Shown: positions 3,324 to 33,435 of the stretch, piece after piece | Position numbering within the stretch: position 1 is the stretch's first letter | Layout of the letters: each line of letters opens with the position of its first letter | IMG/VR virus record: IMGVR_UViG_3300020050_016871 | Coordinates: 14,455 to 78,454 of that record | DNA length: 64,000 nucleotides | Direction: 5' to 3' (one strand) | Source: a virus | Lineage: Duplodnaviria; Caudoviricetes | Translations under genes and position numbers: made by a program | Notes under the pieces: generated by a model | Databases searched by the model: none | Seen by the model: the letters and a program-made list of their open reading frames with translations, nothing else | What the model was told of the DNA's origin: nothing

Positions 3324-4865
3324 TTAATTGTTGTGTGTTTCCACGATTAAACATTCAGTCGAAAGAACAGTAAGAGCAATACTAACAGCATTTCTTAAAT
3401 AATTTTTGATTCCATCTACTGGATCAATAATTCCAGTTTCATATAGATTTTCAAACTGTCTGGTTTTAGCATTATAACCTTGTTCGAAAGAAATCTTTTC
3501 TCTGATTTCATCTATGTTATCATGAAAAGAATTTTGTAATATTTCTTTAAAAGGCTTTCGAAGCATTCTATGAAAAGCTAATTCATATTCATTACAATCG
3601 TTAAAATCTTTTGATAAAAGAACTAAACTTTGTCCACCTCCTATAATCACTTTTCCATTAAGAGCAGCTTTACAAGCGCGATAAGCATCTTGTACTCGAT
3701 GTAATTTTTCTTTGATTTCAATTTCAGAATCACCTCCGACATAGAAAGTAGTAATTCCGTTTTTCATTTTATCAACACGTCTTAACATTTGCAAAGAATA
3801 TGATACTTGTTTTTCTTCTTTGGCGGCTAATTCAATCAAATGAATATAATCATCTAGAATTTCTTTTTGTGTTCCTTCAGGCTCTCCAAAAATAGTATAT
3901 CCTTGCTTTACAATAACATTGAAAGCTTCTCCAAATTGTGTATCAAATTCATCAAAATATTTTATTGGTTCTGCTCCTGTGTAATTATGAATATCATTAA
4001 TTAGATTATCATATTCTTCATTTCTTAATTGATTTTTAATTAAACAAATTTTATTTTCTCCATTATTAAAATCAACAACATTAAGAACATCTTTTGAAAA
4101 ATCTTTGGCAAAAATAATTGTCGGCAACAATGTTCCGTTTTTAGGAAAACGTTCAATCATTTTAATCATTTCTTTTCTGTCTGTAAATTCATTATCATAA
4201 AGAACTACACGACATTTTTTTGCTTCAAAAAAACCACTTATTGGATTATTAGCAAATTTTCTATCCATATACCCCAGGTCCAAAACATAACCTTTGATTA
4301 TATCAACATAACTTTTTCCGTCAACACTTTCAACAATATTAATATAACCATCTTTTCCTGTATTGTCAAAAGCTTTTTGAAATAAATCAGCAATTTCATG
4401 ATCATTGTTTGACGAAGTAAAAGCTACTTTTTTAATTTCAGATAATGGAAGAACAATACTTTTTTCATCTAATAATTCAAAAATATTTTCTAATTCTCTT
4501 TTTACATTTTGTCTAAAAATATGTTCTGAAAAACTTTTCATAGAAGTTTTTAATTCCATTCCTAAAACAATTAATTCTCTACAGAGAACTGAAGCAGTTG
4601 TGGTACCATCACCATTATCAAAATCTGTTTTGGTAGTTACTTTTTTGATTAATTGAATTCCCGTGTTAACAACTGGATCACTATGATCAATACTACTTCC
4701 AACAGTAGCTCCATCTTTTGTAGCAAAAGGATCTGAACCATCAGCGTTATTTATAATAACAAATTTTCCACTTGGTCCCAATGTACTTTTTACAGCATCA
4801 GTGTAAAGATCAATTCCTTCAACTAATTTCTCTTTACTGTTCTTTAAGTAAATTTGTTTTGACAT
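3324..4865 (-). CDS. groEL: Phage chaperonin GroEL (Cpn60)
   Basis: VKSTLGPSGK, TKDGATV, GDGTTTASV, VGGDSEIEIKEKLHRVQDA and GIIDP motifs; lacks the GGM tail. Confidence 0.96.
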   Translation of the reverse strand: MSKQIYLKNSKEKLVEGIDLYTDAVKSTLGPSGKFVIINNADGSDPFATKDGATVGSSIDHSDPVVNTGIQLIKKVTTKTDFDNGDGTTTASVLCRELIVLGMELKTSMKSFSEHIFRQNVKRELENIFELLDEKSIVLPLSEIKKVAFTSSNNDHEIADLFQKAFDNTGKDGYINIVESVDGKSYVDIIKGYVLDLGYMDRKFANNPISGFFEAKKCRVVLYDNEFTDRKEMIKMIERFPKNGTLLPTIIFAKDFSKDVLNVVDFNNGENKICLIKNQLRNEEYDNLINDIHNYTGAEPIKYFDEFDTQFGEAFNVIVKQGYTIFGEPEGTQKEILDDYIHLIELAAKEEKQVSYSLQMLRRVDKMKNGITTFYVGGDSEIEIKEKLHRVQDAYRACKAALNGKVIIGGGQSLVLLSKDFNDCNEYELAFHRMLRKPFKEILQNSFHDNIDEIREKISFEQGYNAKTRQFENLYETGIIDPVDGIKNYLRNAVSIALTVLSTECLIVETHNN

Positions 4866-5516: not shown

Positions 5517-6230
5517 TTATTTAAAGTTAGCTTTTACAGCATGCATAGCAGCTTCTTCATAAGCTGTTTGAGCAAGTGCAATTGATCTATGTTTTTCTCC
5601 AGAGCAATTTTCATCTAATCGCATTGATTCACATAAATCAATTAATGCTGCAGAAGATTTTTTAATTTCATCTACACGAGGATTGTTAGATGGATTAAAA
5701 GAAGCTTGAACTCTATTCATTCCAAGAGTAAGTTCTAATGGAGTAGCTTCTTGCTCTGATTTCTTTTTAAAATAATCAGCAATAATATTTTCTTGGTCAA
5801 CAGTAGGTTCAACTACAAACCATTCTTCTTGATTTTTAAATTTTTCGTAAGGTGTATCTAAAACTTCTTGTGTTTTAGCAAATACCAAAGTCTCTAACGA
5901 TTTCATATCCTTAAACCAGAATCCAAACCAGCCAGGAAGAGCAATACATTTGCCATCATTCAAAAACTTTTCAGCTTCTTCATAAGTCATTTTTTCTGTT
6001 TTAGGTAATTCATTTTCTAAATTAATACCATCAATGTAATCAGATAAAGAGTCTTTTGCAACAAGAAGTTTTGCAATAACAACAGTTAATTGCGGATGCG
6101 CACCTAGTAATTCAATTTTATTAATAGCTTCTTGAATTGAAATTTCTTCAGGTGACAATAAATCCAATCGGTTCCGTCTTGGAATTTTATTTTGATCATT
6201 CATAATTATTTCAGCACTTAACCTTGCCAT
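5517..6230 (-). CDS. Three-domain protein: helical hairpin + DUF2829/Tad2-like + Acb2/Tad1-like domain (putative anti-defence)
   Basis: Middle MTYEEAEKFLNDGKCIALPGW...EEWFVV resembles DUF2829; C-terminal SFNPS...IALAQTAYEEAAMHAVKA resembles the Acb2/Tad1 hairpin family. Confidence 0.55.
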   Translation of the reverse strand: MARLSAEIIMNDQNKIPRRNRLDLLSPEEISIQEAINKIELLGAHPQLTVVIAKLLVAKDSLSDYIDGINLENELPKTEKMTYEEAEKFLNDGKCIALPGWFGFWFKDMKSLETLVFAKTQEVLDTPYEKFKNQEEWFVVEPTVDQENIIADYFKKKSEQEATPLELTLGMNRVQASFNPSNNPRVDEIKKSSAALIDLCESMRLDENCSGEKHRSIALAQTAYEEAAMHAVKANFK

Positions 6231-6235
6231 CGGGT

Positions 6236-7015
6236 TTATAGTTTGTTTAAAAAATTATATAAATCTCTGTCATAACGTGCATCCTCTAGGGCATGATGCT
6301 TTTTAGAAGCTTCTTGCTTTGGATAATCAGGATGTTTTTTTAATTTATCTAAAGAAATTCCTTCATGCCCCCAAGTACTTAATTCAACATCTTTCCATGT
6401 TTTTGAAATATAAGTATTCACTATTTGCTGAATATCATTACAATACATCGGAAAACCTTTTGGTAAATCAATCATTTTTCCAAATAACCAACAAAATACT
6501 ACCCAGTCGTAAGAACAATAATCAGCGTAGAATTCAACAGGAAATAAATGTTTTACCTGATCCCAATTAGCAATAGTATCCGGATTATTTATTTGGCTGG
6601 TTTTATAAACAAATGATTTTATTTCTTCAGCAATTTCTTTATTGGTTTTTCCATAACGACAAAGCAATCTTTCAAGATTATCAAAAGTAAATGACGTATT
6701 CAAATCATGAAAAGCAATATCTTTTCCAGATAATTCATAAAATATTGGTTTCAACACATTCTCACGTATCCAGTACACTTTTCTTCCTGAAAATTGATGA
6801 TATTTTTCAAATGATGTTTGTTCTGCAATATCAAATCTATACCAAGCTTCTTTCAAATTAAAGTCTTTTGAAATAGCATAATACCCCCGTCCATCCTCAG
6901 CCACAATACCAATCGATATTAAATCAATCGTTGGCTTTGTATATCCAACATTAAAACCTAGAAATCTTTTCTTCTGAGGCCCTTCAATGAATTCTGTGTC
7001 TAAAAAATATTTCAT
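6236..7015 (-). CDS. DEDDh 3'-5' exo(ribo)nuclease (Rv2179c/DUF5051-like)
   Basis: YFLDTEF, LISIGIV, YDWVVFCWLFG and HHALEDAR motifs. Confidence 0.88.
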   Translation of the reverse strand: MKYFLDTEFIEGPQKKRFLGFNVGYTKPTIDLISIGIVAEDGRGYYAISKDFNLKEAWYRFDIAEQTSFEKYHQFSGRKVYWIRENVLKPIFYELSGKDIAFHDLNTSFTFDNLERLLCRYGKTNKEIAEEIKSFVYKTSQINNPDTIANWDQVKHLFPVEFYADYCSYDWVVFCWLFGKMIDLPKGFPMYCNDIQQIVNTYISKTWKDVELSTWGHEGISLDKLKKHPDYPKQEASKKHHALEDARYDRDLYNFLNKL

Positions 7016-7024
7016 AATTATAAT

Positions 7025-7603
7025 TTACTTGTTTCTATCATATCGCTCCCATGCAAAAAAATCATCCTCGTCCCAGTCATTATGAAAATCAACCGCCGAA
7101 GAATAAGGAAGAATAACATGCTCCAAATCTTTTCCTCTCATATCATCAGAATGAGAAAAATCACCCATAAATTGCTTTTTATAATATTCTTGATCTTCAA
7201 TCATTCTTTGAATATACGGTTTCATTGAAAGATCAAGAACATTAATATCAGACTCTTCATCAATAGAATCTGAAGAAGCAACAATATTAAACTTTTCATT
7301 TTTTTGCCACATATCATAAAAATGACTTCCAATAGTATCATGACCACCCGTGCCAATAATCATTACCTTACCAAAATTCTTATTGTGATTTAATCTTGGC
7401 ATAGCAGCTTCCCATAGTTTTTTATCATAGCCATTCAACATTGCCGTATCAGGATCTCCATAACCAAATAATCTTCTGTTCAATTCAGCAATATCATAAG
7501 GCATTTTCCCTAAAACCCCAGTAACAGATTGTTCTGAGGTTGGTTTTAACTTCTTTTTTTTAGGAATATATCCTAATGACTTTCTTTTATCACGCTTAGA
7601 CAT
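7025..7603 (-). CDS. Hypothetical protein containing a terminase-ATPase-like fragment
   Basis: FGKVMIIGTGG...GSHFYDMWQKNEKFN aligns with TerL FGTPIIFGTGG...GSKGYMDMWENHKAYN in this window. Confidence 0.65.
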   Translation of the reverse strand: MSKRDKRKSLGYIPKKKKLKPTSEQSVTGVLGKMPYDIAELNRRLFGYGDPDTAMLNGYDKKLWEAAMPRLNHNKNFGKVMIIGTGGHDTIGSHFYDMWQKNEKFNIVASSDSIDEESDINVLDLSMKPYIQRMIEDQEYYKKQFMGDFSHSDDMRGKDLEHVILPYSSAVDFHNDWDEDDFFAWERYDRNK

Positions 7604-7628
7604 AATAACTATTTATTATAATTTGTAA

Positions 7629-7729
7629 AATTAATTTGCGCCCGAGGATTACCTACCGCATTTCAATCCAATTCCCTATTAGTTATCCTAGGTTCTAATA
7701 AAGCGCAGCATTTCGGGCGCAAATTAATT
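7629..7729 (-). ncRNA. Putative structured RNA (17-bp closing stem, two internal hairpins, possible pseudoknot)
   Basis: Perfect IR 7629-7645/7713-7729; internal CTTTATTAG/CTAATAGGG and GGATTG/TAATCC stems that use G.U pairs on the minus strand. Confidence 0.6.
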
Positions 7730-7737
7730 CTTTATTG

Positions 7738-7845
7738 TGGAGAGTGAAGGACTCGAACCTCCGACCTTACTTCGGCGACTCGCTTTGAAGTTTCCCCCGC
7801 ACGACACAATCCGAAATACACTCTAGCCAACTGAGCTAACTCCCC
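7738..7845 (-). tRNA. Atypical 108-nt tRNA-like RNA (Ala identity G3.U70, A73) with greatly extended anticodon arm
   Basis: Acceptor GGGGAGT/ACTCTCC, D arm GCTC-AGTTGGCTA-GAGT, variable loop AGGTC, T arm GGAGG-TTCGAGT-CCTTC; ~51-nt arm closed by TATTTCGG/CCGAAGTA in place of the 17-nt anticodon arm; no encoded CCA. Confidence 0.8.
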
Positions 7846-12370: not shown

Positions 12371-14989
12371 ATGAAAAACGATGAAGAGATAATCACATCA
12401 AATCAATTGGTATTAGATTTTGATGCCAAAGAAATTGTTCCCGAAGTTATTATTCCAGAACCCGTTTATGTTGCTGAAGTTATTCCTGAAAAAATAGAAC
12501 CTGATTTCATACCAGGTGATATAAATAACATTGCTAAAATGTTACCATTATTATATCATGGACAACATCAAAACGTTGCTTTCGCTGAAAAAAGATTTCA
12601 AGAAGGCAAAGGTGTTATGTTTACTGATGGAACAGGAACAGGTAAAACATTTACTGGTTGTGGAATCATTTACAGATTCTATTACCAAGGTAAAAAAGAA
12701 ATTGTTATTGTTGTTCCAACAGATCAAAAATGTATTGACTGGATAGAAGAAGGAGCCAAGCTTGGCCTTTCCATTTATCACATTCAAAACACAAAAGATC
12801 CTGGCTTTGAAATTACAGTGACAACTTATGCTAATTTCTATAAAAACGAAGCCTTATTAAAAAGGCTTTTAGATTTATTAGTATATGATGAATCACATTA
12901 TCTTGGACAAAATGCTTCTGGAATTGAAACAAGTTACTTTGAACAGCATAAAAAAGTAGCCAACTTGCCTACAGCATGCAGAGAACGTGCTCGTGAAATG
13001 CACCAAGAATTGAAACCCAATTACGATGGATCTACCAGTTGGTATGAACAATCAAAATACTATGAGAAAATCATTCAGCTTACCGTAGAACGATTTGTAA
13101 TTCAAACCAAAGTAGTATTCTTATCAGCAACACCATTTGCTTATCACAAATCAATTAAATATGCTGACGGTACATTGCTTGAGATAGAAGAAAAACTGAT
13201 TGTTGAACAAAAAAGCTACAGAAACTATAATGAAGCGCCACCATTTGGTGATTTCTTAGTAACTAACTTTGGGTACCAAATGAAATATGACAAAGTAACA
13301 ATACCTGAAAGCGGTGTTGATGTCAATTTATTGGAAAGACAATTCTTTGAAAACATGAAAGAAAAAGGAATCATCAGTACTAGAGTTTTAGAACTAGAAC
13401 AAGATTACTCAAGAGATTTTGTAACGTTGGATTCTGATATTGGAGATTTTATTAATGAAGGAATGGAAGAATTTTTCACTCCTAATTTTCAAAAAACCTT
13501 TCCAATATTATATAATAAGTTTTCAACGAAGTACAATTATATGTACATTAATCAGCTATTGGAATGTATAAAAGCCAGAGAAGTAATTCCAAGAATTCAA
13601 CAACATTTAGATTTAGGTAGAAAAGTTGTTATTTTCCACGCTTACAATCATGCAGCAGTAGAACATCCATTTCGTTTTAGTGCAAGTCGATTATTAAAAA
13701 GTGATGAAAAAATACTTATTCCAAAGCTAACAAGAGAAATAGAATTGTACCAGAAATTATATCCTGAATACTATAATTTAGATTTATCTTCATTAGAAAA
13801 TGTACGCGATGTTATTGTAAAAGCTTTTCCAGATACAAAACAATTTAATGGTACCATTCCTAAAAAGAAAAGACAAGAATCGTTGAAAGATTTCAATAAC
13901 GATTATGGAAATACCAATATATTATTAGTTCAAAACAAAGCAGGAAAAGAAGGGATTAGTTTACATGATAAAACAGGATTATATCAACGTGTTCTAATAC
14001 AATTAGGATTAGCAACAGAACCTACAGGATGTATTCAAATTGAAGGCAGAACGTACAGGGATGGAGTTAAGAGCAATGCGCCTTATGAATACATGACTGT
14101 TCAAACTACATTTGAAAGGATTGCTTTTGGAGAAAAAATAGCAACACGTTCCCGAACAGCTGAGAATTTAGCAATGGGGAATTTAGCAAGAAATCTAGAA
14201 GCATCATTCAAAGAAGGATATTTAAATTCTAGTCATAAACCTCCATCATTGGAACAAGGTATTGGTGGCAAAGCAATGGATAAATTCAATAATGATATTA
14301 CTCCATTTGACAAAGCCATTACGTATTATTATTCCAGAGCCAAAAGAAATTCTAAAACAAAAGCAAAAGAAGGTGGTGATTATTTCGCTACTCCAGAACC
14401 ATTAGGATTTAAAATGGTTCAATGGGCAAAACCTTGTCCTAACGACAGAGGATTAGAACCTAGTGCTGGACATGGAGCAATTGCAAGATTTTTTCCAGGA
14501 GATACAACGAATCATTTTATCGAACAAAATATAAATCTAACAGGAGAACTATGTATTAACTCTACAGGTACTGTAAAAATAGAAGATTTTGAAATTCATA
14601 ATTCGATTAACAAATATGATTTTGTTGTAATGAATCCACCATTTGGTTCTTCAGGTAAATTAGCTATGGATCATTTAGAAAAAGTAATGGTTAAACATAC
14701 TGAAAGATATCATGGTAGAATTATCTCTATTGTACCTTCAGGACCAACAATGGATAAACGATTGCAACTGTTTTTAAAATCAGAAAAAGGAATGAAGTTT
14801 TATATTAAAACTGAAATTCAATTACCATCATGTGTGTTTACAAGAGCAGGAACAAATGTTTCAACAAAAGTATTGGAAATAATAAAAGTAAATCATCAAG
14901 ATTACAAAGAAGAAACTAGAAAGATTGATTTATCTCATATTGAATCAATTAAAGATTTCTTCGAAGAAATTCGATATCTTGAAATATAA
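12371..14989 (+). CDS. SF2 (strawberry-notch/SNF2-like) helicase fused to C-terminal N6-adenine methyltransferase; start revised to 12371
   Basis: DGTGTGKT, DESH, SATP, QIEGRTYR helicase motifs; EPSAGHG and NPPF methyltransferase motifs. Confidence 0.88.
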   Translation: MKNDEEIITSNQLVLDFDAKEIVPEVIIPEPVYVAEVIPEKIEPDFIPGDINNIAKMLPLLYHGQHQNVAFAEKRFQEGKGVMFTDGTGTGKTFTGCGIIYRFYYQGKKEIVIVVPTDQKCIDWIEEGAKLGLSIYHIQNTKDPGFEITVTTYANFYKNEALLKRLLDLLVYDESHYLGQNASGIETSYFEQHKKVANLPTACRERAREMHQELKPNYDGSTSWYEQSKYYEKIIQLTVERFVIQTKVVFLSATPFAYHKSIKYADGTLLEIEEKLIVEQKSYRNYNEAPPFGDFLVTNFGYQMKYDKVTIPESGVDVNLLERQFFENMKEKGIISTRVLELEQDYSRDFVTLDSDIGDFINEGMEEFFTPNFQKTFPILYNKFSTKYNYMYINQLLECIKAREVIPRIQQHLDLGRKVVIFHAYNHAAVEHPFRFSASRLLKSDEKILIPKLTREIELYQKLYPEYYNLDLSSLENVRDVIVKAFPDTKQFNGTIPKKKRQESLKDFNNDYGNTNILLVQNKAGKEGISLHDKTGLYQRVLIQLGLATEPTGCIQIEGRTYRDGVKSNAPYEYMTVQTTFERIAFGEKIATRSRTAENLAMGNLARNLEASFKEGYLNSSHKPPSLEQGIGGKAMDKFNNDITPFDKAITYYYSRAKRNSKTKAKEGGDYFATPEPLGFKMVQWAKPCPNDRGLEPSAGHGAIARFFPGDTTNHFIEQNINLTGELCINSTGTVKIEDFEIHNSINKYDFVVMNPPFGSSGKLAMDHLEKVMVKHTERYHGRIISIVPSGPTMDKRLQLFLKSEKGMKFYIKTEIQLPSCVFTRAGTNVSTKVLEIIKVNHQDYKEETRKIDLSHIESIKDFFEEIRYLEI

Positions 14990-21068: not shown

Positions 21069-22538
21069 ATGAGTCACATTCCAATGACTGCTCCAGCGCA
21101 GACAAGTTCTTTTCCAAAAAAAGAAAAAAATGAAAATTTACAATTAGTACCTACAGGAATGCATCCTGCTATTATCTACGGAGTAGTAAACGTAGGAACA
21201 CAAGATGGAGAATACCAAGGAAGACAAACAGCTTCAAATAAATTAAAGCTGATTATTGAAATCCCAGGACACAGACAATTATATTGGAAAGAAGATACTG
21301 TTCCAACACCATCAGCTATGATTATGGATTTTAATTATAGTGTTTCTAAAAACAAAAAATCAGGAAAGAAAAGCAAATTACTTTTATTGATTGAAAGTTT
21401 GTTTGGCCCATTACAAGAATCTCAATATTTATCTTTTGATATTTCTCAGTTAGCTGGATTAAAAGTATTTGTAAATGTTGTTCATTATTACAAGCAAGAC
21501 CAAACACTAGGAGCTAAAATTGATAGTATTTCTCAATTCAATCCTAATTATGTAGATCCTAACACCCTTGTATTAACAAATCAAATACAAGTGTATTCTG
21601 TACAAATGGGATTTGAAAATATGTCATTTGCACAATTACCTTATTTCTACAGAACTTTAATTAAAGAAAGCCATGAAGGAAAAGCGCACAGTTCTGCAGG
21701 TGGTAGATTTACAAAATTAGATGATAACGGAAACATTGTTGTTGATGATGGTTCAAATAATTATACTACTGCTCCGCTTGGTAAATTAGTAATGATAAAT
21801 CCGGCATATACTTATGATCAGCTGAAATCAGCTGGATGGGATGACCAAGCAATGATTGATAATGGATATGCTAGAAGAGAAGCTGTTCAGGCTCCTGTTC
21901 CCGTTCCTACACCTCAACCACAAGCGCCAGCTCCGTTGCCAAGCATTCCACAAATACAAAATCAACATGCTCAATTACAACAACAAGGCGTTCATCCTGT
22001 AAATTTGACACCATCATCAAATCCAGCACATCAACCAACGGCACCAATGTCTATTCAGCCACAGATGCCACAGGCGCATACCAATCCAGCTCAACCAATG
22101 TTGACAATGATTGACAAAACTGTTTCTTATCAGGATTACATAAATAATGGATGGACTGATGCTTTGTTAATTCAACATGGAAAAGCCATCATGATGCCGG
22201 CTCAAAATGATGTGTTTCCACAAACACCTCCTGTAGCAGTTCCACCCATTGCACCACCGGTACAACAACCGCCTGCTCCACAAATGCAACAAGGTATTCC
22301 ACAAGCACAGCCAGCACCTAATCAAGGTTATGCTCAACCTCAAGCAATTCCGCAAGCGGTACCACAAGGAATACCAGCACCTCAACCAACAGCTGCTCAA
22401 TTGTATCAAAATACACCAGCTGCTCCTGTACAACAAATGGGAAATGTACATCCACCAATTCCACCTGCTCCGATAAGTTCTTTTGAACAACCATCAGCAA
22501 TGAATGGTGACGCACCACCAGATGATTTACCATTCTAA
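21069..22538 (+). CDS. Phage SSB-like / NGO0469-like replication protein with Pro/Gln-rich linker, two W(T/D)D modules and DDLPF tail
   Basis: GMHPAIIYGVVNVGTQ..EYQG N-terminus; acidic-aromatic C-terminus DDLPF as in Bacteroidota SSB. Confidence 0.75.
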   Translation: MSHIPMTAPAQTSSFPKKEKNENLQLVPTGMHPAIIYGVVNVGTQDGEYQGRQTASNKLKLIIEIPGHRQLYWKEDTVPTPSAMIMDFNYSVSKNKKSGKKSKLLLLIESLFGPLQESQYLSFDISQLAGLKVFVNVVHYYKQDQTLGAKIDSISQFNPNYVDPNTLVLTNQIQVYSVQMGFENMSFAQLPYFYRTLIKESHEGKAHSSAGGRFTKLDDNGNIVVDDGSNNYTTAPLGKLVMINPAYTYDQLKSAGWDDQAMIDNGYARREAVQAPVPVPTPQPQAPAPLPSIPQIQNQHAQLQQQGVHPVNLTPSSNPAHQPTAPMSIQPQMPQAHTNPAQPMLTMIDKTVSYQDYINNGWTDALLIQHGKAIMMPAQNDVFPQTPPVAVPPIAPPVQQPPAPQMQQGIPQAQPAPNQGYAQPQAIPQAVPQGIPAPQPTAAQLYQNTPAAPVQQMGNVHPPIPPAPISSFEQPSAMNGDAPPDDLPF

Positions 22539-28857: not shown

Positions 28858-29991
28858 ATGAATTTTTTCGAAACATTATCAGCAACAGGAATTAAAGATG
28901 TAGTATTTCAAGTAAAAGAAGATAGTACAGGAAACATCACTGTTTTTATTACTCCAAAATCAGTATCAGAAGATCCTGCTTTGTCAAAATTAAAACCAAT
29001 TTTTATTAGTGGAACACCACAAGATATTGATGGACAATTTTTTCATTTGATTACTGCTCCTCTTCAAAACATTCAAAAAGTATTTACAAACATAGAAGCT
29101 TTTGAAGCCCAGGCTAAAGAAGTTGCTAAAGCTACTGCAGATAAAAAATCAGCTAAAAAAGCAACAACAACAGCTGCTGCATCGGAAGAAGATGGAGAAG
29201 AAAAAACACCAGCTGCTAAGCCTGAAAAAACAGTTAAAGTCAACAATGAAAAAGTTCTAAAAGAATTTATGACTTCTATTAAAGATGAACCGATTATTGG
29301 TCATAAAGAAAAAATAGAAGAATTGTATGCTTTATTATCTGAAGCTGAGTTAGGAAAACCATTTGCTAAAAAAGTGAGAATCGATTTAGATATTGCTATT
29401 CGTAAAGAAGCAAACTTACAAGCTGCTAGAGAGAAACATGGTTTTACTCCTAAAGAAGAAACTGCCACAGAATCTAAAGATATGAAGATAGTAGATATCA
29501 GCAATCTTACAGTACAAAATGGAGTAATAAAAGAAGTAGTAAACCCAAACGAGAACGCACCTCAAGCTGCTGGTCCAGAAGAGGTAGTTGCTACAAATGA
29601 AAGTGAAAACACAGAAAGTATTATTGATGCTTATGAACAATCTGCTGTAGAAAAAGAAGTTGCTTTTGAACAAGTATCTGCTCCTATAGAAGAAGTAATT
29701 ATTCCTACTCCTACACCACCAGCGCCTGTTGCCGCACCAATAGTTCCGAAAGTACCTGCTGAACCTGAGTTTGAAGAAATTCAACAATTAGTAATGTTAG
29801 TTACTGATGGAACTTATGAAGAATACATTAAAGCTACATGGACTGACGAATTGTTAATTGAGCACAAAAAAGCAGAATACAGAACTGTTAAAGTTCCTGT
29901 TATTAAAACACCGGTAGCCGAAGCACCTGCTCAAAAGTTATCTTATACTTTTCCAACGCAATTTGATGCTGAAGAAGAAGAAAACAATTAA
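28858..29991 (+). CDS. PRTRC system protein E (ParB-related ThiF-related cassette) with long C-terminal extension
   Basis: MNFFETL...GNITVFITP...LKPIFISGTPQDIDGQFFHLITAP N-terminus; first gene of the cassette. Confidence 0.8.
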   Translation: MNFFETLSATGIKDVVFQVKEDSTGNITVFITPKSVSEDPALSKLKPIFISGTPQDIDGQFFHLITAPLQNIQKVFTNIEAFEAQAKEVAKATADKKSAKKATTTAAASEEDGEEKTPAAKPEKTVKVNNEKVLKEFMTSIKDEPIIGHKEKIEELYALLSEAELGKPFAKKVRIDLDIAIRKEANLQAAREKHGFTPKEETATESKDMKIVDISNLTVQNGVIKEVVNPNENAPQAAGPEEVVATNESENTESIIDAYEQSAVEKEVAFEQVSAPIEEVIIPTPTPPAPVAAPIVPKVPAEPEFEEIQQLVMLVTDGTYEEYIKATWTDELLIEHKKAEYRTVKVPVIKTPVAEAPAQKLSYTFPTQFDAEEEENN

Positions 29992-30012
29992 TTAATTTTT
30001 AGATAAAATATC

Positions 30013-30231
30013 ATGGCAATAGTAAAAGAATTAAAAAGAAAGTTCACTATCAAAATAGGAAATGAAGTTATTGAACTTGAAGATCCGAATTCAAACTTTG
30101 AAGCAAAAGATGTAATGGAAATGTATGCCAATCAATATCCTCAATTAGTAAATGCTACTATTGAATCAAAAGGAATTGTTGACGAATGTATTCTGTACAA
30201 TTTTGCGACAGTAGCCGGAACAAAAGGATAA
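30013..30231 (+). CDS. PRTRC system protein C, ubiquitin-like modifier
   Basis: LKRKF...LEDPN...VMEMYANQYPQLVNATIE...YNFATVAGTKG; ends in Gly. Confidence 0.9.
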   Translation: MAIVKELKRKFTIKIGNEVIELEDPNSNFEAKDVMEMYANQYPQLVNATIESKGIVDECILYNFATVAGTKG

Positions 30232-30234
30232 GCT

Positions 30235-30408
30235 ATGAATGCAATTGAATTTTTAAAAATTTTAAAGGAGCGGCCACAGGCTGCTCCTTTTGATAAAAAA
30301 CTTAGTGGTTTATGTCAAAATATTCGATCCAATCAAAAAACAAATTACAAAAACGGAACCGTACAAACAAAAATGGTTCTAAGCAGACAAAAAATATTTT
30401 TCAGCTAA
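30235..30408 (+). CDS. 57-aa ORF inside the PRTRC cassette, overlapping the next gene
   Basis: Manual translation MNAIEFLKILKERPQ...; good start context right after the Ubl stop. Confidence 0.4.
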   Translation: MNAIEFLKILKERPQAAPFDKKLSGLCQNIRSNQKTNYKNGTVQTKMVLSRQKIFFS

Positions 30409-31358
30409 TTGATCAAATTCCTAAAATAAAATATGGAATTAATATTGGTGAACATGATCCTATAATCTTTGCAGAAAATCTTATTACTTTTTTACAATCA
30501 AAACATCCTGAAGAATTAAATAAATTAGTTTTTAAGGAAACTGATAGTTTGAACAAATTGTTAGGTCTATTAGCTAAAACTATTATAGATCTTAAATACA
30601 TAATTGTATATTCTGAAGAAGATAAAACAAATAACGATTTACGAATTTTATATGAGATACCTCATAAAGAATTTATGTGGTATTATTTTGATACAAAAAC
30701 AATTGATGATATAGAAGCTGAAGAATTAAAAATTGGCTTTGCTCATTTTCTATACCATTTTGGAAAATCATGTGAACATAATGCTTTAGATAGTGATTAT
30801 GAAAATACTGTTGATAATCCTTATGAAATGCAATTTGAAATGCTTAGTGATGAAGAAATAGCTTTTGATGAAAATGATGAATTTGATGAAGAGCATTATG
30901 AAAAAATAAGTGATAAAGCTAATGAAGAACTTCAGACATTAAGAGTATTAAAAGAAAAATTTAATTTCTATAATCAAAAACCATTAGAATTGTTTTTAGA
31001 TTACGAACCTAAAAATGATTTAGAAAAAGGATTTAAAGAATGTTTAATAGAAGGATTAGATATTCCTTTTCGTGACATTATGGTTCAATTCATGCCAGAT
31101 GAAGATATTTATAACGATGGAGGTATTGGTTTTGATATGAATTTTGTTTTGTATTTAGATCCAGAAAATGAATTTGAAAAAGAACATTTTACATATATGA
31201 ATGAAAATGCTAACAATGGAATTTCAAATCCTTGTGGCTGGTATTCTGTATCTGAAGGTATTCTAGAACAAATGACTTCAGATGAAGATGCCAAGAATCT
31301 TTTTTATATTCAATGTTATTTGGAAAATATTTATACTCAATTTTTAAATAAAATGTAA
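30312..31358 (+). CDS. PRTRC-cassette acidic protein (protein F position)
   Basis: 348-aa ORF between Ubl and E2, as in Bacteroidota PRTRC cassettes; call is mainly positional. Confidence 0.55.
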   Translation: MSKYSIQSKNKLQKRNRTNKNGSKQTKNIFQLIDQIPKIKYGINIGEHDPIIFAENLITFLQSKHPEELNKLVFKETDSLNKLLGLLAKTIIDLKYIIVYSEEDKTNNDLRILYEIPHKEFMWYYFDTKTIDDIEAEELKIGFAHFLYHFGKSCEHNALDSDYENTVDNPYEMQFEMLSDEEIAFDENDEFDEEHYEKISDKANEELQTLRVLKEKFNFYNQKPLELFLDYEPKNDLEKGFKECLIEGLDIPFRDIMVQFMPDEDIYNDGGIGFDMNFVLYLDPENEFEKEHFTYMNENANNGISNPCGWYSVSEGILEQMTSDEDAKNLFYIQCYLENIYTQFLNKM

Positions 31359-32029
31359 TGATAACACACATTAAAAATGTTGACGAAAACAAATTAGAAT
31401 TTGTTATATGTGGATATTCTAGCGAAATGATTTATCATGAATTCAATTCAGATGAAAACAAATTAGATGCCGGCAAGTCATTGACTTTTGAAACTGCAAA
31501 ATCTATTTTTAATTTTATTAATCAAATAGATGATATTCAAAATTATTCTTTTCAAGACATTATTCCAAAAAATGTTTTAAAGTTTAAAACAGATGAAAAA
31601 TATATTATCTGGGAAACTCCTGAAGGTATTCAAGACATAATTTACAAAGAAAATTTACCTATACAATCAGGAAAGTATTTTGTTCCAAAAATGGTTTGGA
31701 AATTGGTAAATAACAGATTGTCTATTTGGGCAATTAAAAAAAGTGTTTCAAGTAAAAAAGATAAATTATTTCAAGCTCCATTTTTTAACGTAAATGGTAC
31801 CGGAGGTGTTTGTATGGGAAATGCAAAATTTGTTGATAACGGCTATGATTATTTAAAAATAATGAAAAAGGTTGAAGCTGCTTTCTGGAATTCTGTTTTC
31901 ACACATACTATTCAAAACGAACTGCTTAATTTTAATTTTGTAGAATGGTGTAATGATCCAAGATTACATTTAGAAGATTGCAGTCATTTATTGATTGAAA
32001 AGTCAACAATAATTAAAGATATATTATAA
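31358..32029 (+). CDS. PRTRC system protein B, prokaryotic E2 family D
   Basis: IIWETP...YFVPKMVW...LSIWAIK...LFQAPFFNVNGTGGVCMGN...FWNSVFTH; candidate catalytic Cys in VCMG. Confidence 0.88.
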   Translation: MITHIKNVDENKLEFVICGYSSEMIYHEFNSDENKLDAGKSLTFETAKSIFNFINQIDDIQNYSFQDIIPKNVLKFKTDEKYIIWETPEGIQDIIYKENLPIQSGKYFVPKMVWKLVNNRLSIWAIKKSVSSKKDKLFQAPFFNVNGTGGVCMGNAKFVDNGYDYLKIMKKVEAAFWNSVFTHTIQNELLNFNFVEWCNDPRLHLEDCSHLLIEKSTIIKDIL

Positions 32030-32247
32030 TGGCAGAATTTGAAATAGCAGCACCTGGAACAATCTGTTTAATTCAACAAACAGAAGATGGAAGAATTATG
32101 CAATTAGCAATGACAAAAGAACAAAACAATCTTTTACAATTATTGATTGCATCAATGAGCACAGCAAGTCCTTTAATTAAAATGGATCCAGAGTATGATT
32201 TGGTTTTAAAAAATTCATTGTGTAAAAAATGTAAAAATGAAAAATAA
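32029..32247 (+). CDS. Small hypothetical protein within the cassette
   Basis: 72-aa ORF coupled to E2 and E1 genes. Confidence 0.6.
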   Translation: MAEFEIAAPGTICLIQQTEDGRIMQLAMTKEQNNLLQLLIASMSTASPLIKMDPEYDLVLKNSLCKKCKNEK

Positions 32248-33058
32248 AAAAGAAACAATTCATTATGCTCCTGCATATTTTATTGAACCAACGCATCCAA
32301 TAACAATTGCTGTAATTGGCTGTGGTGGTACGGGTTCATTAGTACTTCCTCGATTGGCACGATTGGATTATGTTTTAAAAGAATTAGGATTGCCAGGTTT
32401 GTACGTGCATGCGTATGACGGCGATACTGTAGAGCAAAACAATGTAGGCAGACAGAACTTTAATAAAAATGATATTGGTGAATTCAAAGCGGCCAATTTA
32501 ATCCAAAAAATAAATATGGCTTATGGATTAGATTGGAATGCTACAAATGAATACGTAAGCAATATTCCGAGTGCAAACATTTTAATTACTTGTGTTGACA
32601 AAATTGATTTAAGAACTTTATTTCATGGCGTTTTTAATTCAGATTATAAAAACAAGAACAATGATTATCTTAAAAATTATTATTGGTTAGATTGTGGTAA
32701 CGGTAGAAATTTTGGTCAGGTTGTATTAACTACAATTGGTAAAATAGAACAACCTAAAAAATCAGCATACAATTGTCAATCAATACTTCCATCAGTAATT
32801 GATATCTATGGAGAATTGAACCAATACGATACACAAGAAGCACAAGGTATTGTTGGTTGTTCAATGGCTGAAAGTTTAGCTAAACAAGATGTATTCATTA
32901 ATGATGAAATAGCTGTTCAAGCAGTTAAAATTGTACAGCAGCTGGTTCGTCATTATCGAATTCAATATCATGGCGCTGTAGTCAATCAGGGAACAAGTAA
33001 AGTAATTGGAATTCCGATTCCACAAAACAAAAAATCATGTCAAAATACCAAGAAATAA
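32237..33058 (+). CDS. PRTRC system ThiF-family E1 enzyme
   Basis: VIGCGGTGS, DGDTVEQNNVGRQ, ITCVD, YWLDCGNG..FGQV, GCSMAESLAKQDVFIN. Confidence 0.93.
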   Translation: MKNKKETIHYAPAYFIEPTHPITIAVIGCGGTGSLVLPRLARLDYVLKELGLPGLYVHAYDGDTVEQNNVGRQNFNKNDIGEFKAANLIQKINMAYGLDWNATNEYVSNIPSANILITCVDKIDLRTLFHGVFNSDYKNKNNDYLKNYYWLDCGNGRNFGQVVLTTIGKIEQPKKSAYNCQSILPSVIDIYGELNQYDTQEAQGIVGCSMAESLAKQDVFINDEIAVQAVKIVQQLVRHYRIQYHGAVVNQGTSKVIGIPIPQNKKSCQNTKK

Positions 33059-33435
33059 AAAAGCAATCAGAAAAAAAAAGAACTGTATTGTTTAAAGAGG
33101 TAGGATTGTTTTTCGCTTTCAGTGATGAACAATTTGGTAAAAATAAAACACTGCTTATAGAAGGAGATAAATATGTTTCTATCGGTGCCGGCGGTTATTT
33201 ACCAAAATCAAAAGTGGATGAATTCATTAAAGGTTCAAAGGCAATTACAAAATGGGAGAAAGACGAAATAAAAAATCAAAAGTTAGCCAGAGAACAGATC
33301 GCTTATGAATTGGCAAATCATGAAGCGTATTACACTGGAGAATTAGAAGACACTTATGATGCTCTTGGCGGTGTATATTCAATGGAAGAAATTCAAAAAG
33401 TATACCGTGAAGAATGTAAAACCCATCAGAAATAA
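33037..33435 (+). CDS. Conserved phage/mobile-element hypothetical protein
   Basis: FFAFSDEQF...SIGAGGY...IAYELANHE motif. Confidence 0.7.
   Translation: MSKYQEIKKQSEKKRTVLFKEVGLFFAFSDEQFGKNKTLLIEGDKYVSIGAGGYLPKSKVDEFIKGSKAITKWEKDEIKNQKLAREQIAYELANHEAYYTGELEDTYDALGGVYSMEEIQKVYREECKTHQK

Follow-up and report, generated by a model that had tools for sequence, protein, structure and literature searches.

A ubiquitin-like conjugation cassette was identified at positions 28858–33058 of a 64,000-nucleotide (nt) stretch of phage DNA, hereafter the window (positions 14,455–78,454 of the 78,454-bp IMG/VR record IMGVR_UViG_3300020050_016871); unless another record is named, coordinates are positions in the window. 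The phage is crAss-like, a term used here for likeness of genes at ~25% identity and not for assignment to the order Crassvirales. The cassette resembles PRTRC (short for ParB-Related, ThiF-Related Cassette; NCBIfam TIGR03734–03742) and encodes a ubiquitin-like modifier, an E1-like activating enzyme, an E2-like conjugating enzyme and the accessory proteins E and F. The gene set is intact and conserved, and the catalytic residues that are invariant in the families are all present. On balance we think it likely that these genes form a working, protease-less conjugation cassette of PRTRC type, one inherited in a lineage of ~77–100-kb crAss-like phages of Flavobacteriia/Bacteroidota and expressed together with the replication genes. 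The cassette is a real and useful lead, not a first. A first-pass annotation, made from the letters of the window, had named five genes here; each was found where it had been placed, on the + strand, and hidden Markov model (HMM) searches bore out the family matches of all but F, while two small open reading frames (ORFs) had been missed, at 30235–30408 and 32029–32247. The interval contains the following genes (aa, amino acids).

28858–29991, + strand: PRTRC protein E, 377 aa; TIGR03741, 46.6 bits (cut-off 37.95), and PF19556, 63.9 bits (cut-off 26).
30013–30231, + strand: ubiquitin-like modifier (PRTRC protein C, Prok_Ub), 72 aa; PF14454, 64.9 bits (cut-off 25), and TIGR03738, 52.2 bits (cut-off 45.95).
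30235–30408, + strand: ORF X, a small frame of 57 aa; unannotated, runs into the start of F.
30312–31358, + strand: divergent PRTRC protein F, 348 aa; assigned by profile–profile comparison.
31358–32029, + strand: E2-like conjugating enzyme (PRTRC protein B, Prok-E2_D), 223 aa; PF14460, 80.5 bits (cut-off 25).
32029–32247, + strand: lineage-variable ORF between E2 and E1, 72 aa; open frame, tightly packed.
32237–33058, + strand: E1-like activating enzyme (PRTRC ThiF family), 273 aa; TIGR03736, 206.7 bits (cut-off 144.75).

The match of E1 to TIGR03736 extended over model positions 6–243 of 245. The curated PRTRC models, which the first-pass annotation had named as a check, were matched above their cut-offs by protein E, the modifier and E1, and not by the products of the B and F genes. 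No PHROGs family was matched by any cassette protein. The genes are tightly packed, with stop codons overlapping starts (the F stop overlaps the E2 start codon), and no terminator-like site was found on the + strand within the cassette. Compared with the nearest relative (the cassette of locus L005, in which the modifier terminus is identical to that of the window), identities were 73% for the modifier, 74% for E1, 56% for E2 and 41% for E and F, with all frames open. These values point to purifying selection on the cassette, which speaks for its being functional.

The E1 contains the nucleotide-binding loop GCGGTGS, of the GxGGxG type. In an alignment of 33 E1 sequences, Gly28, Gly30, Gly31, Gly33, Asp61, Asp63, Lys84, Asp121 and the pair Cys208-Ser209 were invariant, and Arg72 and Gln73 were present in at least 90% of the sequences. 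The N-terminal half of the protein matched the adenylation domains of the solved proteins UBA6, UBA3, UBA5, Cap2, ThiF, MccB and BubCD. Alignment of 77 distinct E2 sequences indicated that Pro110, Pro141, Asn144, Cys152 and Gly154 are invariant; Cys152, the candidate catalytic residue, is the Cys of VCMG and lies within the motif PFFN...GGVCMG, and a His downstream of it (His183) is kept in 69 of the 77. The ATP-binding loop, the candidate catalytic Cys of E1 and the VCMG motif of E2, all of which had been noted earlier, are thus intact and conserved in both families. Prediction of a complex between E2 and F, each supplied as an alignment, gave no answer (score of 0.23 against a mark of 0.32).

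The modifier ends in ...VAGTKG directly before the stop codon, leaving a free terminal Gly72. Since it is made with its terminal Gly, a maturing protease is not needed, in agreement with what had been proposed from the GTKG end. A terminal Gly, typically in the form ...VGTKG, was present in 75 of the 81 loci with a recognisable modifier. Neither Prok-JAB (PF14464) nor PRTRC_A (TIGR03735), PRTRC ParB (TIGR03734) or protein D (TIGR03739) was matched at E ≤ 1 anywhere in the 78,454-bp genome, which extends to the entire genome the earlier remark that no ParB or JAB partner is adjacent to the cassette. As a control, TIGR03735 matched nothing in 14 reference genomes, yet it found protein A in viral records, where it was present in only 2 of 50 that bear PRTRC genes. 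One of the six modifiers that are not Gly-ended terminates in GTKA, and the other five (L001, L003, L048, L083 and L084) are extended C-terminally past the Gly. These five loci, which include phage Dina and Burkholderia phage BgVeeders33, both of the JAB type, have at least 614 nt between E2 and E1, and in three of the five protein A is present by annotation or by a match to TIGR03735. Precursor modifiers thus go together with a peptidase and ready-made ones with its absence, a relationship that holds generally; the missing peptidase is a pattern across loci and not a loss peculiar to the phage studied here. In the usual viral layout E has ~200 aa and is followed by a modifier of ~70 aa, an F of ~380 aa, an E2 of ~230 aa and an E1 of ~255 aa, the genes for the last two abutting.

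Cassettes with JAB have their protein A at the junction of E2 and E1. The two genes overlap by a few bases in most loci, but the junction is a recurrent insertion slot, with unrelated small ORFs or gaps of 204–651 nt in some protease-less loci. The 72-aa ORF of the window overlaps both the E2 stop and the E1 start and had no match in Pfam, NCBIfam or PHROGs and no usable lead in the ESM Atlas; the same slot in the nearest relative holds an unrelated 92-aa ORF. Besides the window, a filled slot was seen in L005, L025, L026, L031, L042, L051, L056 and L066.

Relatives of the window E1 were found at 314 loci in IMG/VR and on 355 plasmids in PLSDB. Among GenBank phages, full-length relatives were confined to Ralstonia phages Dina and YO105_4 and to Burkholderia phage BgVeeders33, plus one gut fragment, and no named Crassvirales genome was included. 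The rarity implied by the first-pass annotation did not stand, as PRTRC genes are annotated in Ralstonia phage Dina and the Gly-ended form lacking JAB is the common one among the IMG/VR loci. Within the IMG/VR records tested, seven other viral contigs have a related terminase (82, 48, 45, 34, 34, 32 and 25% identity), and all of them carry the cassette. In G010 (82% terminase identity) it is preceded by the same helicase and exonuclease genes and in G006 (45%) by the same single-stranded DNA-binding protein (SSB)-like, helicase and exonuclease genes, whereas in G050 (48%; compare L094) it lies upstream, not downstream, of the SSB-like, helicase and exonuclease genes. Terminases were unrelated in 46 of 50 other PRTRC-bearing records, about half of which are flagged as proviruses. 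A quick tree of E1 placed seven of eight crAss-type loci on one side of a branch with 97% support in the Shimodaira–Hasegawa-like approximate likelihood ratio test (SH-aLRT). A group with 99% support comprised the window, its nearest relative, two further members of the lineage, a Flavobacteriaceae metagenome-assembled genome and a contig of Flavobacterium sp. P3160. The latter, 26.6 kb in size, is phage-like, with genes for an SNF2 helicase and NinG ahead of the cassette and, after it, genes for DnaN and the small and large terminase subunits.

The window belongs to a complete virus record (78,454 bp, 121-bp terminal repeat, CheckV completeness 100%). The first matches of its terminase, portal and large structural protein were with crAss-like phages, at only ~25% identity. 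For the large terminase subunit (TerL) the best matches were from Crassvirales, Flavobacterium phages, Cellulophaga phi14:2 and an Azobacteroides phage (23–27% identity); phrog_6547 and phrog_6681 were matched by portal and TerL, and the structural protein matched stabilisation proteins of phi14:2 and of crAss001-type phages. The genome also contains a giant ORF of 3962 aa, giant virion proteins being a crAss-like trait, and no tyrosine or serine recombinase (integrase) was found anywhere in it. The cassette is located within a long rightward gene block, with a Dda-like helicase and an exonuclease encoded upstream and a primase downstream, so that its earlier placement in the replication module of a crAss-like phage is upheld; 'distant crAss-like phage, replication module' is a fair description of the setting. 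The host is probably a member of Flavobacteriia. A chimeric contig at the cassette, which the first-pass annotation had raised as a possible objection, was ruled out by the even G+C content across the region and by an independent 80.5-kb assembly with the same cassette and the same genes on both flanks. The 6-kb cassette region had no nucleotide match among GenBank phages. Elsewhere in the window, a GroEL-type chaperonin is encoded at 3324–4865 (− strand; phrog_5725, E 3e-91). The 3′ end of the E1 gene is overlapped by 22 nt by a gene for a DUF7659 protein (33037–33435, + strand; PF24692, 90.8 bits). This gene was rejected as a cassette member, since in relatives it does not travel with the cassette; in L094 its homologue sits far from it.

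Protein F, described in the first-pass annotation as an F-position gene, had no hmmscan match, TIGR03742 included. Comparison by hhalign with the F-position proteins of 57 other loci, among them the annotated F of phage Dina, indicated that it is a true but divergent PRTRC F (probability 97.2%, E 3.8e-11, 232 columns). A simple profile search with protein F recovered three relatives only, and the subfamily comprises 45 clusters among 1.84 billion representatives. An AlphaFold2 (AF2) model (predicted local distance difference test (pLDDT) 81.8, predicted template modelling score (pTM) 0.78) consisted mainly of helices plus a small sheet, and the N-terminal ~27 aa are basic and predicted to be disordered; judged from this model, F appears to have no known fold. 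In the public collection the sole form of F, record P0126, is a 269-aa product that begins at residue 80. The gene caller behind that record probably avoided the overlap with ORF X, relatives being called from the upstream ATG.

ORF X starts 4 nt past the modifier stop and shares its last 97 nt with the beginning of F, the frame of F being −1 relative to X. It is conserved in the three nearest relatives, from MNAIEFLK... to an end in IFFS or FLS, and a positional counterpart of 41–71 aa was present in 56 of 58 distinct PRTRC loci. The stop of the counterpart always falls on the first conserved motif of F, at a T-rich junction with the consensus NTT TTC TGA. Conservation was highest in the X frame, with an identity of 0.85 in related pairs (0.77 and 0.78 in the other frames) and 0.62 in a divergent pair (0.35 and 0.39). 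Across X, the F frame contained 45 stops where 147 were expected from codon shuffles, against 197 and 202, respectively, in a control frame. In three of four lineage members (the window and two relatives) the ATG of F lies exactly 97 nt before the X stop, and in 29 of 45 clusters the relatives of F were called to start within query residues 1–10. We read X and F as two overlapping genes. The T-rich junction led us to consider a −1 frameshift that would fuse X to F, and this was ranked as the weaker alternative because the F frame is kept open, the ATG spacing is fixed at 97 nt and gene callers place starts there. Reinitiation at a start codon overlapping the X stop was rejected, as CTA or TTA occupies that position in about one-fifth of loci. 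The correspondence between X of this lineage and X of other loci is positional only, homology not being shown by hhalign (probability 0.14%), and X had no Pfam or NCBIfam family and no usable ESM Atlas lead. Phage Dina has the corresponding stretch joined in frame to the modifier, and BgVeeders33 has it as a separate 61-aa gene. A subgroup represented by L075 (4710–4883), L070 and L082 has a different small ORF after the modifier, ending A AAA AAG TGA, a classical −1 slippery heptamer directly before the stop; a further ORF of ~72 aa precedes F in these loci.

In protein E, the PRTRC_E family match covers only residues 2–144 of 377. An N-terminal alpha/beta domain followed by a long helix (~aa 1–110; AF2 model of aa 1–120, pLDDT 79.8) leads into a linker rich in Lys, Ala and Glu, then into a Pro-rich stretch and, in the C-terminal part, a module of ~30 aa (aa ~305–340, nt ~29770–29880), LVMLVTDGTYEEYIKATWTDELLIEHKKA. 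This module matches two copies in the phage's own 489-aa SSB-like protein (BLASTP, E 4e-7). With a profile HMM made from these three window copies, the module was also detected in two related phages, within their SSB-like proteins, and in the nearest relative (L088), within protein E. The SSB-like protein of the window is encoded at 21069–22538 (+ strand), ends in an SSB-like acidic tip, DDLPF, and has long Pro/Gln-rich linkers; its sole family match was to phrog_862 (function unassigned), at the N-terminus. The protein E match of L094 (IMGVR_UViG_3300033553_000478, 5834–7786) is ~650 aa in size, far longer than elsewhere. Structural comparison (VIA-align) of the N-terminal domain of the window protein E with ribosome hibernation factors gave Z 5–6, below the informative level.

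Based on what is expected of these E1 and E2 families, the E1 would adenylate Gly72 of the modifier using ATP and hold the modifier as a thioester, probably on Cys208, before handing it to Cys152 of the E2, which would join it to lysines of target proteins. As no deconjugating peptidase is present, tagging during infection would run one way only. The cassette may have adaptors or substrates of its own in proteins E and F, and perhaps in X. Our best guess is that E, with its Lys-rich tail and SSB-type module, would be a preferred substrate, or else an adaptor that places tagging at replicating phage DNA.

Several observations weigh against a working cassette inherited in this way. Cys208 was assigned as the candidate catalytic residue from its invariance alone, because solved E1s align only to the N-terminal half. 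The E2 has no solved relative by sequence and scored 77.7 bits with TIGR03737 (PRTRC_B), under the cut-off of 131.45. The model of F gave no Foldseek match at E ≤ 0.001 and a best VIA-align Z of 3.7, and for the N-terminal domain of E the best VIA-align match, T7 gp1.2 (Z 6.8, root-mean-square deviation 2.8, 73 aligned residues), was below the informative level. No target, E3 or reader protein could be recognised from the sequence. There is no biochemistry on any PRTRC cassette, the function of which was described as not studied in a 2026 paper (PMC13366799). As regards inheritance, the P3160 contig, whose cassette is the nearest outside the lineage, has an unrelated terminase, and its E1 is 48% identical to that of the window, compared with 39–40% for two members of the lineage. 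Since the P3160 E1 is the closer one, inheritance is not purely vertical; the data suggest that it has been mostly vertical, with at least one exchange.

A use of the cassette against host defences would overlap with the main reading, involve the same enzymology and differ only in the target, which would be host immune proteins, or the cassette would interfere with ubiquitin-like defences of the host such as Bil or Cap2 of the cyclic-oligonucleotide-based anti-phage signalling system (CBASS). The spread of the cassette over phages, plasmids (355), integrative and conjugative elements (ICEs) and viral loci (314) would suit a function needed upon arrival in a new cell, E and F are fast-evolving (41% identity, compared with 73–74% for the modifier and E1), and unrelated small ORFs replace one another in the slot between E2 and E1. 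In addition, during host-range expansion PRTRC protein B of a Phocaeicola vulgatus prophage is reported to be a recurrent hotspot of mutation (preprint, bioRxiv 10.64898/2026.10.01.756045). We nevertheless regard this role as unlikely, given that the cassette lies in the replication module, outside the leftward accessory cluster of the genome, and has been kept across deep divergence of the lineage, while anti-defence genes usually turn over. Slightly lower still we would put the chance of a replication, partition or carrier-state module in which tagging regulates the replisome or keeps the genome episomal, as might be supposed from the association of PRTRC with ParB on plasmids. The position between the helicase and exonuclease genes and the primase agrees with such a role, as do the DnaN sliding-clamp gene directly after the cassette in the Flavobacterium phage-like contig, the module of the SSB-like protein on E, and the different pair of JAB-like protein and E1 beside the primase in crAss001-type phages. 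The genome, however, has no ParB, ParM-like protein D or integrase, and gene position alone is weak evidence.

The first-pass annotation had also raised, as something that would refute its reading, a purely sulfur-carrying modifier, on which the E1 would make a thiocarboxylate for thiolation, as with ThiS and MoaD, so that no protein is tagged. Membership of the E1 in the ThiF/MoeB superfamily and the Gly end shared by the modifier with ThiS and MoaD are compatible with this. Against it, the E2 with its invariant Cys is never missing, and neither a rhodanese domain nor a sulfurtransferase, thiamine or molybdopterin gene was seen in the cassette or among its neighbours; E1s of these operon types never carry a rhodanese domain according to Iyer, Burroughs and Aravind (2006; PMC1779556). 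Of the rival readings, only sulfur transfer is made unlikely by the data, through the constant E2 and the lack of rhodanese or sulfurtransferase genes in the cassette and its neighbours, and we consider it very improbable.

The reading we prefer remains that of a working, protease-less conjugation cassette expressed with the replication genes of the phage. Going beyond it, we advance only tentatively, and with some doubt, the view that ubiquitin-like tagging is an old, conserved part of replication in crAss-like phages. Under such a scheme, a one-way PRTRC would have E docking through the SSB-like module at replicating DNA, crAss001-type phages would keep a JAB-like protein and an E1 at the same place in the genome, and ORF X, out of frame over the start of F, would be a sixth product. 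The X-over-F arrangement recurs throughout the protease-less PRTRC loci that were examined in IMG/VR. If true, this would add to bacterial ubiquitination-like pathways ones that are owned by viruses and have targets of their own. To date, experiments on ubiquitin-like conjugation in bacteria have been limited to host defence systems (CBASS Cap2, Bil and Bub), and PRTRC, catalogued since 2006–2008 and common on plasmids, ICEs and phages, has never had its function put to the test. The present lineage offers a minimal version, with no peptidase, no ParB and a ready-to-use modifier, that suits simple reconstitution, and fixation of the cassette in the replication module of virulent-type phages narrows the likely targets. 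New here are the occurrence of the cassette in seven contigs with related terminases, an F with no recognised fold, the module shared by E and the SSB-like protein, and the overlapping ORF X; the last two are concrete, testable handles.

Comparison with known systems places the cassette closest to the fourth operon type (6d) of Iyer et al., later catalogued as PRTRC (PMC1779556). As in 6d, there is a small protein of beta-grasp type whose C-terminal Gly is conserved, the E2 is without the classical His and has one after the Cys (His183 here), and a helical protein, the counterpart of F, diverges rapidly. The JAB with a JAB-N domain listed for 6d is missing here, whereas protein E and ORF X are not in the 6d description. 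PRTRC has been discussed for Burkholderia and Phocaeicola prophages (PMC13366799; bioRxiv 10.64898/2026.10.01.756045), though in the literature searched its occurrence in prophages is touched on only in passing. The gene order E, C, F, B, ThiF is that of PRTRC in phage Dina (gp07–gp02, NC_055026) and proteobacterial plasmids; E, C and ThiF exceed the curated cut-offs, B matches Prok-E2_D and F is related by profile–profile comparison. Unlike PRTRC, the phage cassette has no protein A (JAB), ParB or protein D, its B falls under the equivalog cut-off, its F is missed by TIGR03742 and its E is twice the usual length. The modifier of PRTRC, for example in Dina, carries an extension of ~55 aa, whereas that of the phage ends at the Gly, and the carrier is a virulent-type crAss-like genome in place of a plasmid, ICE or temperate phage. 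As ParB and protein A, two defining features of PRTRC, are missing, the cassette was filed as a PRTRC variant and not as a member.

The protease-less PRTRC loci of Bacteroidota proviruses and IMG/VR contigs, and that of P3160, share with the window the five-gene layout, the ...GTKG end and abutting E2 and E1 genes, as well as a small ORF over the start of F and a location in the early or replication region. They differ in that most have unrelated terminases, E1 identity is only 36–48% and F of the present lineage forms its own subfamily. A ThiF-type E1 in the replication module near the primase is also found in crAss001-type Crassvirales (Kehishuvirus, OQ198717), but this E1 has 383 aa, shares only 28% identity with the window E1 across 47% of the query and comes after a JAB-like protein, and the PRTRC E, C, B and F families were not detected by Pfam at that locus. 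In the cultured Kehishuvirus sp. 'tikkala' (OQ198717; L002, 3316–5705) the pair consists of a 411-aa protein with a Prok-JAB score of 20.4 bits (below the cut-off) followed by the 383-aa E1, for which the only annotations are 'metalloprotease domain' and 'thiamine biosynthesis protein'. The literature searched contained no paper on ubiquitin-like systems of crAss-like phages. With Bil (BilABCD), CBASS Cap2/Cap3 and Bub, the cassette has in common the expected thioester chemistry from E1 to E2 and a Gly-ended ubiquitin-like protein (PMC10557695, PMC10097602, PMC11601596), and the adenylation domain of its E1 weakly resembles Cap2 and BubCD in sequence. These three systems serve the host against phages or under stress, include a JAB or other peptidase and have different E2 families, whereas the cassette described here is phage-owned and peptidase-free and has the extra proteins E, F and X.

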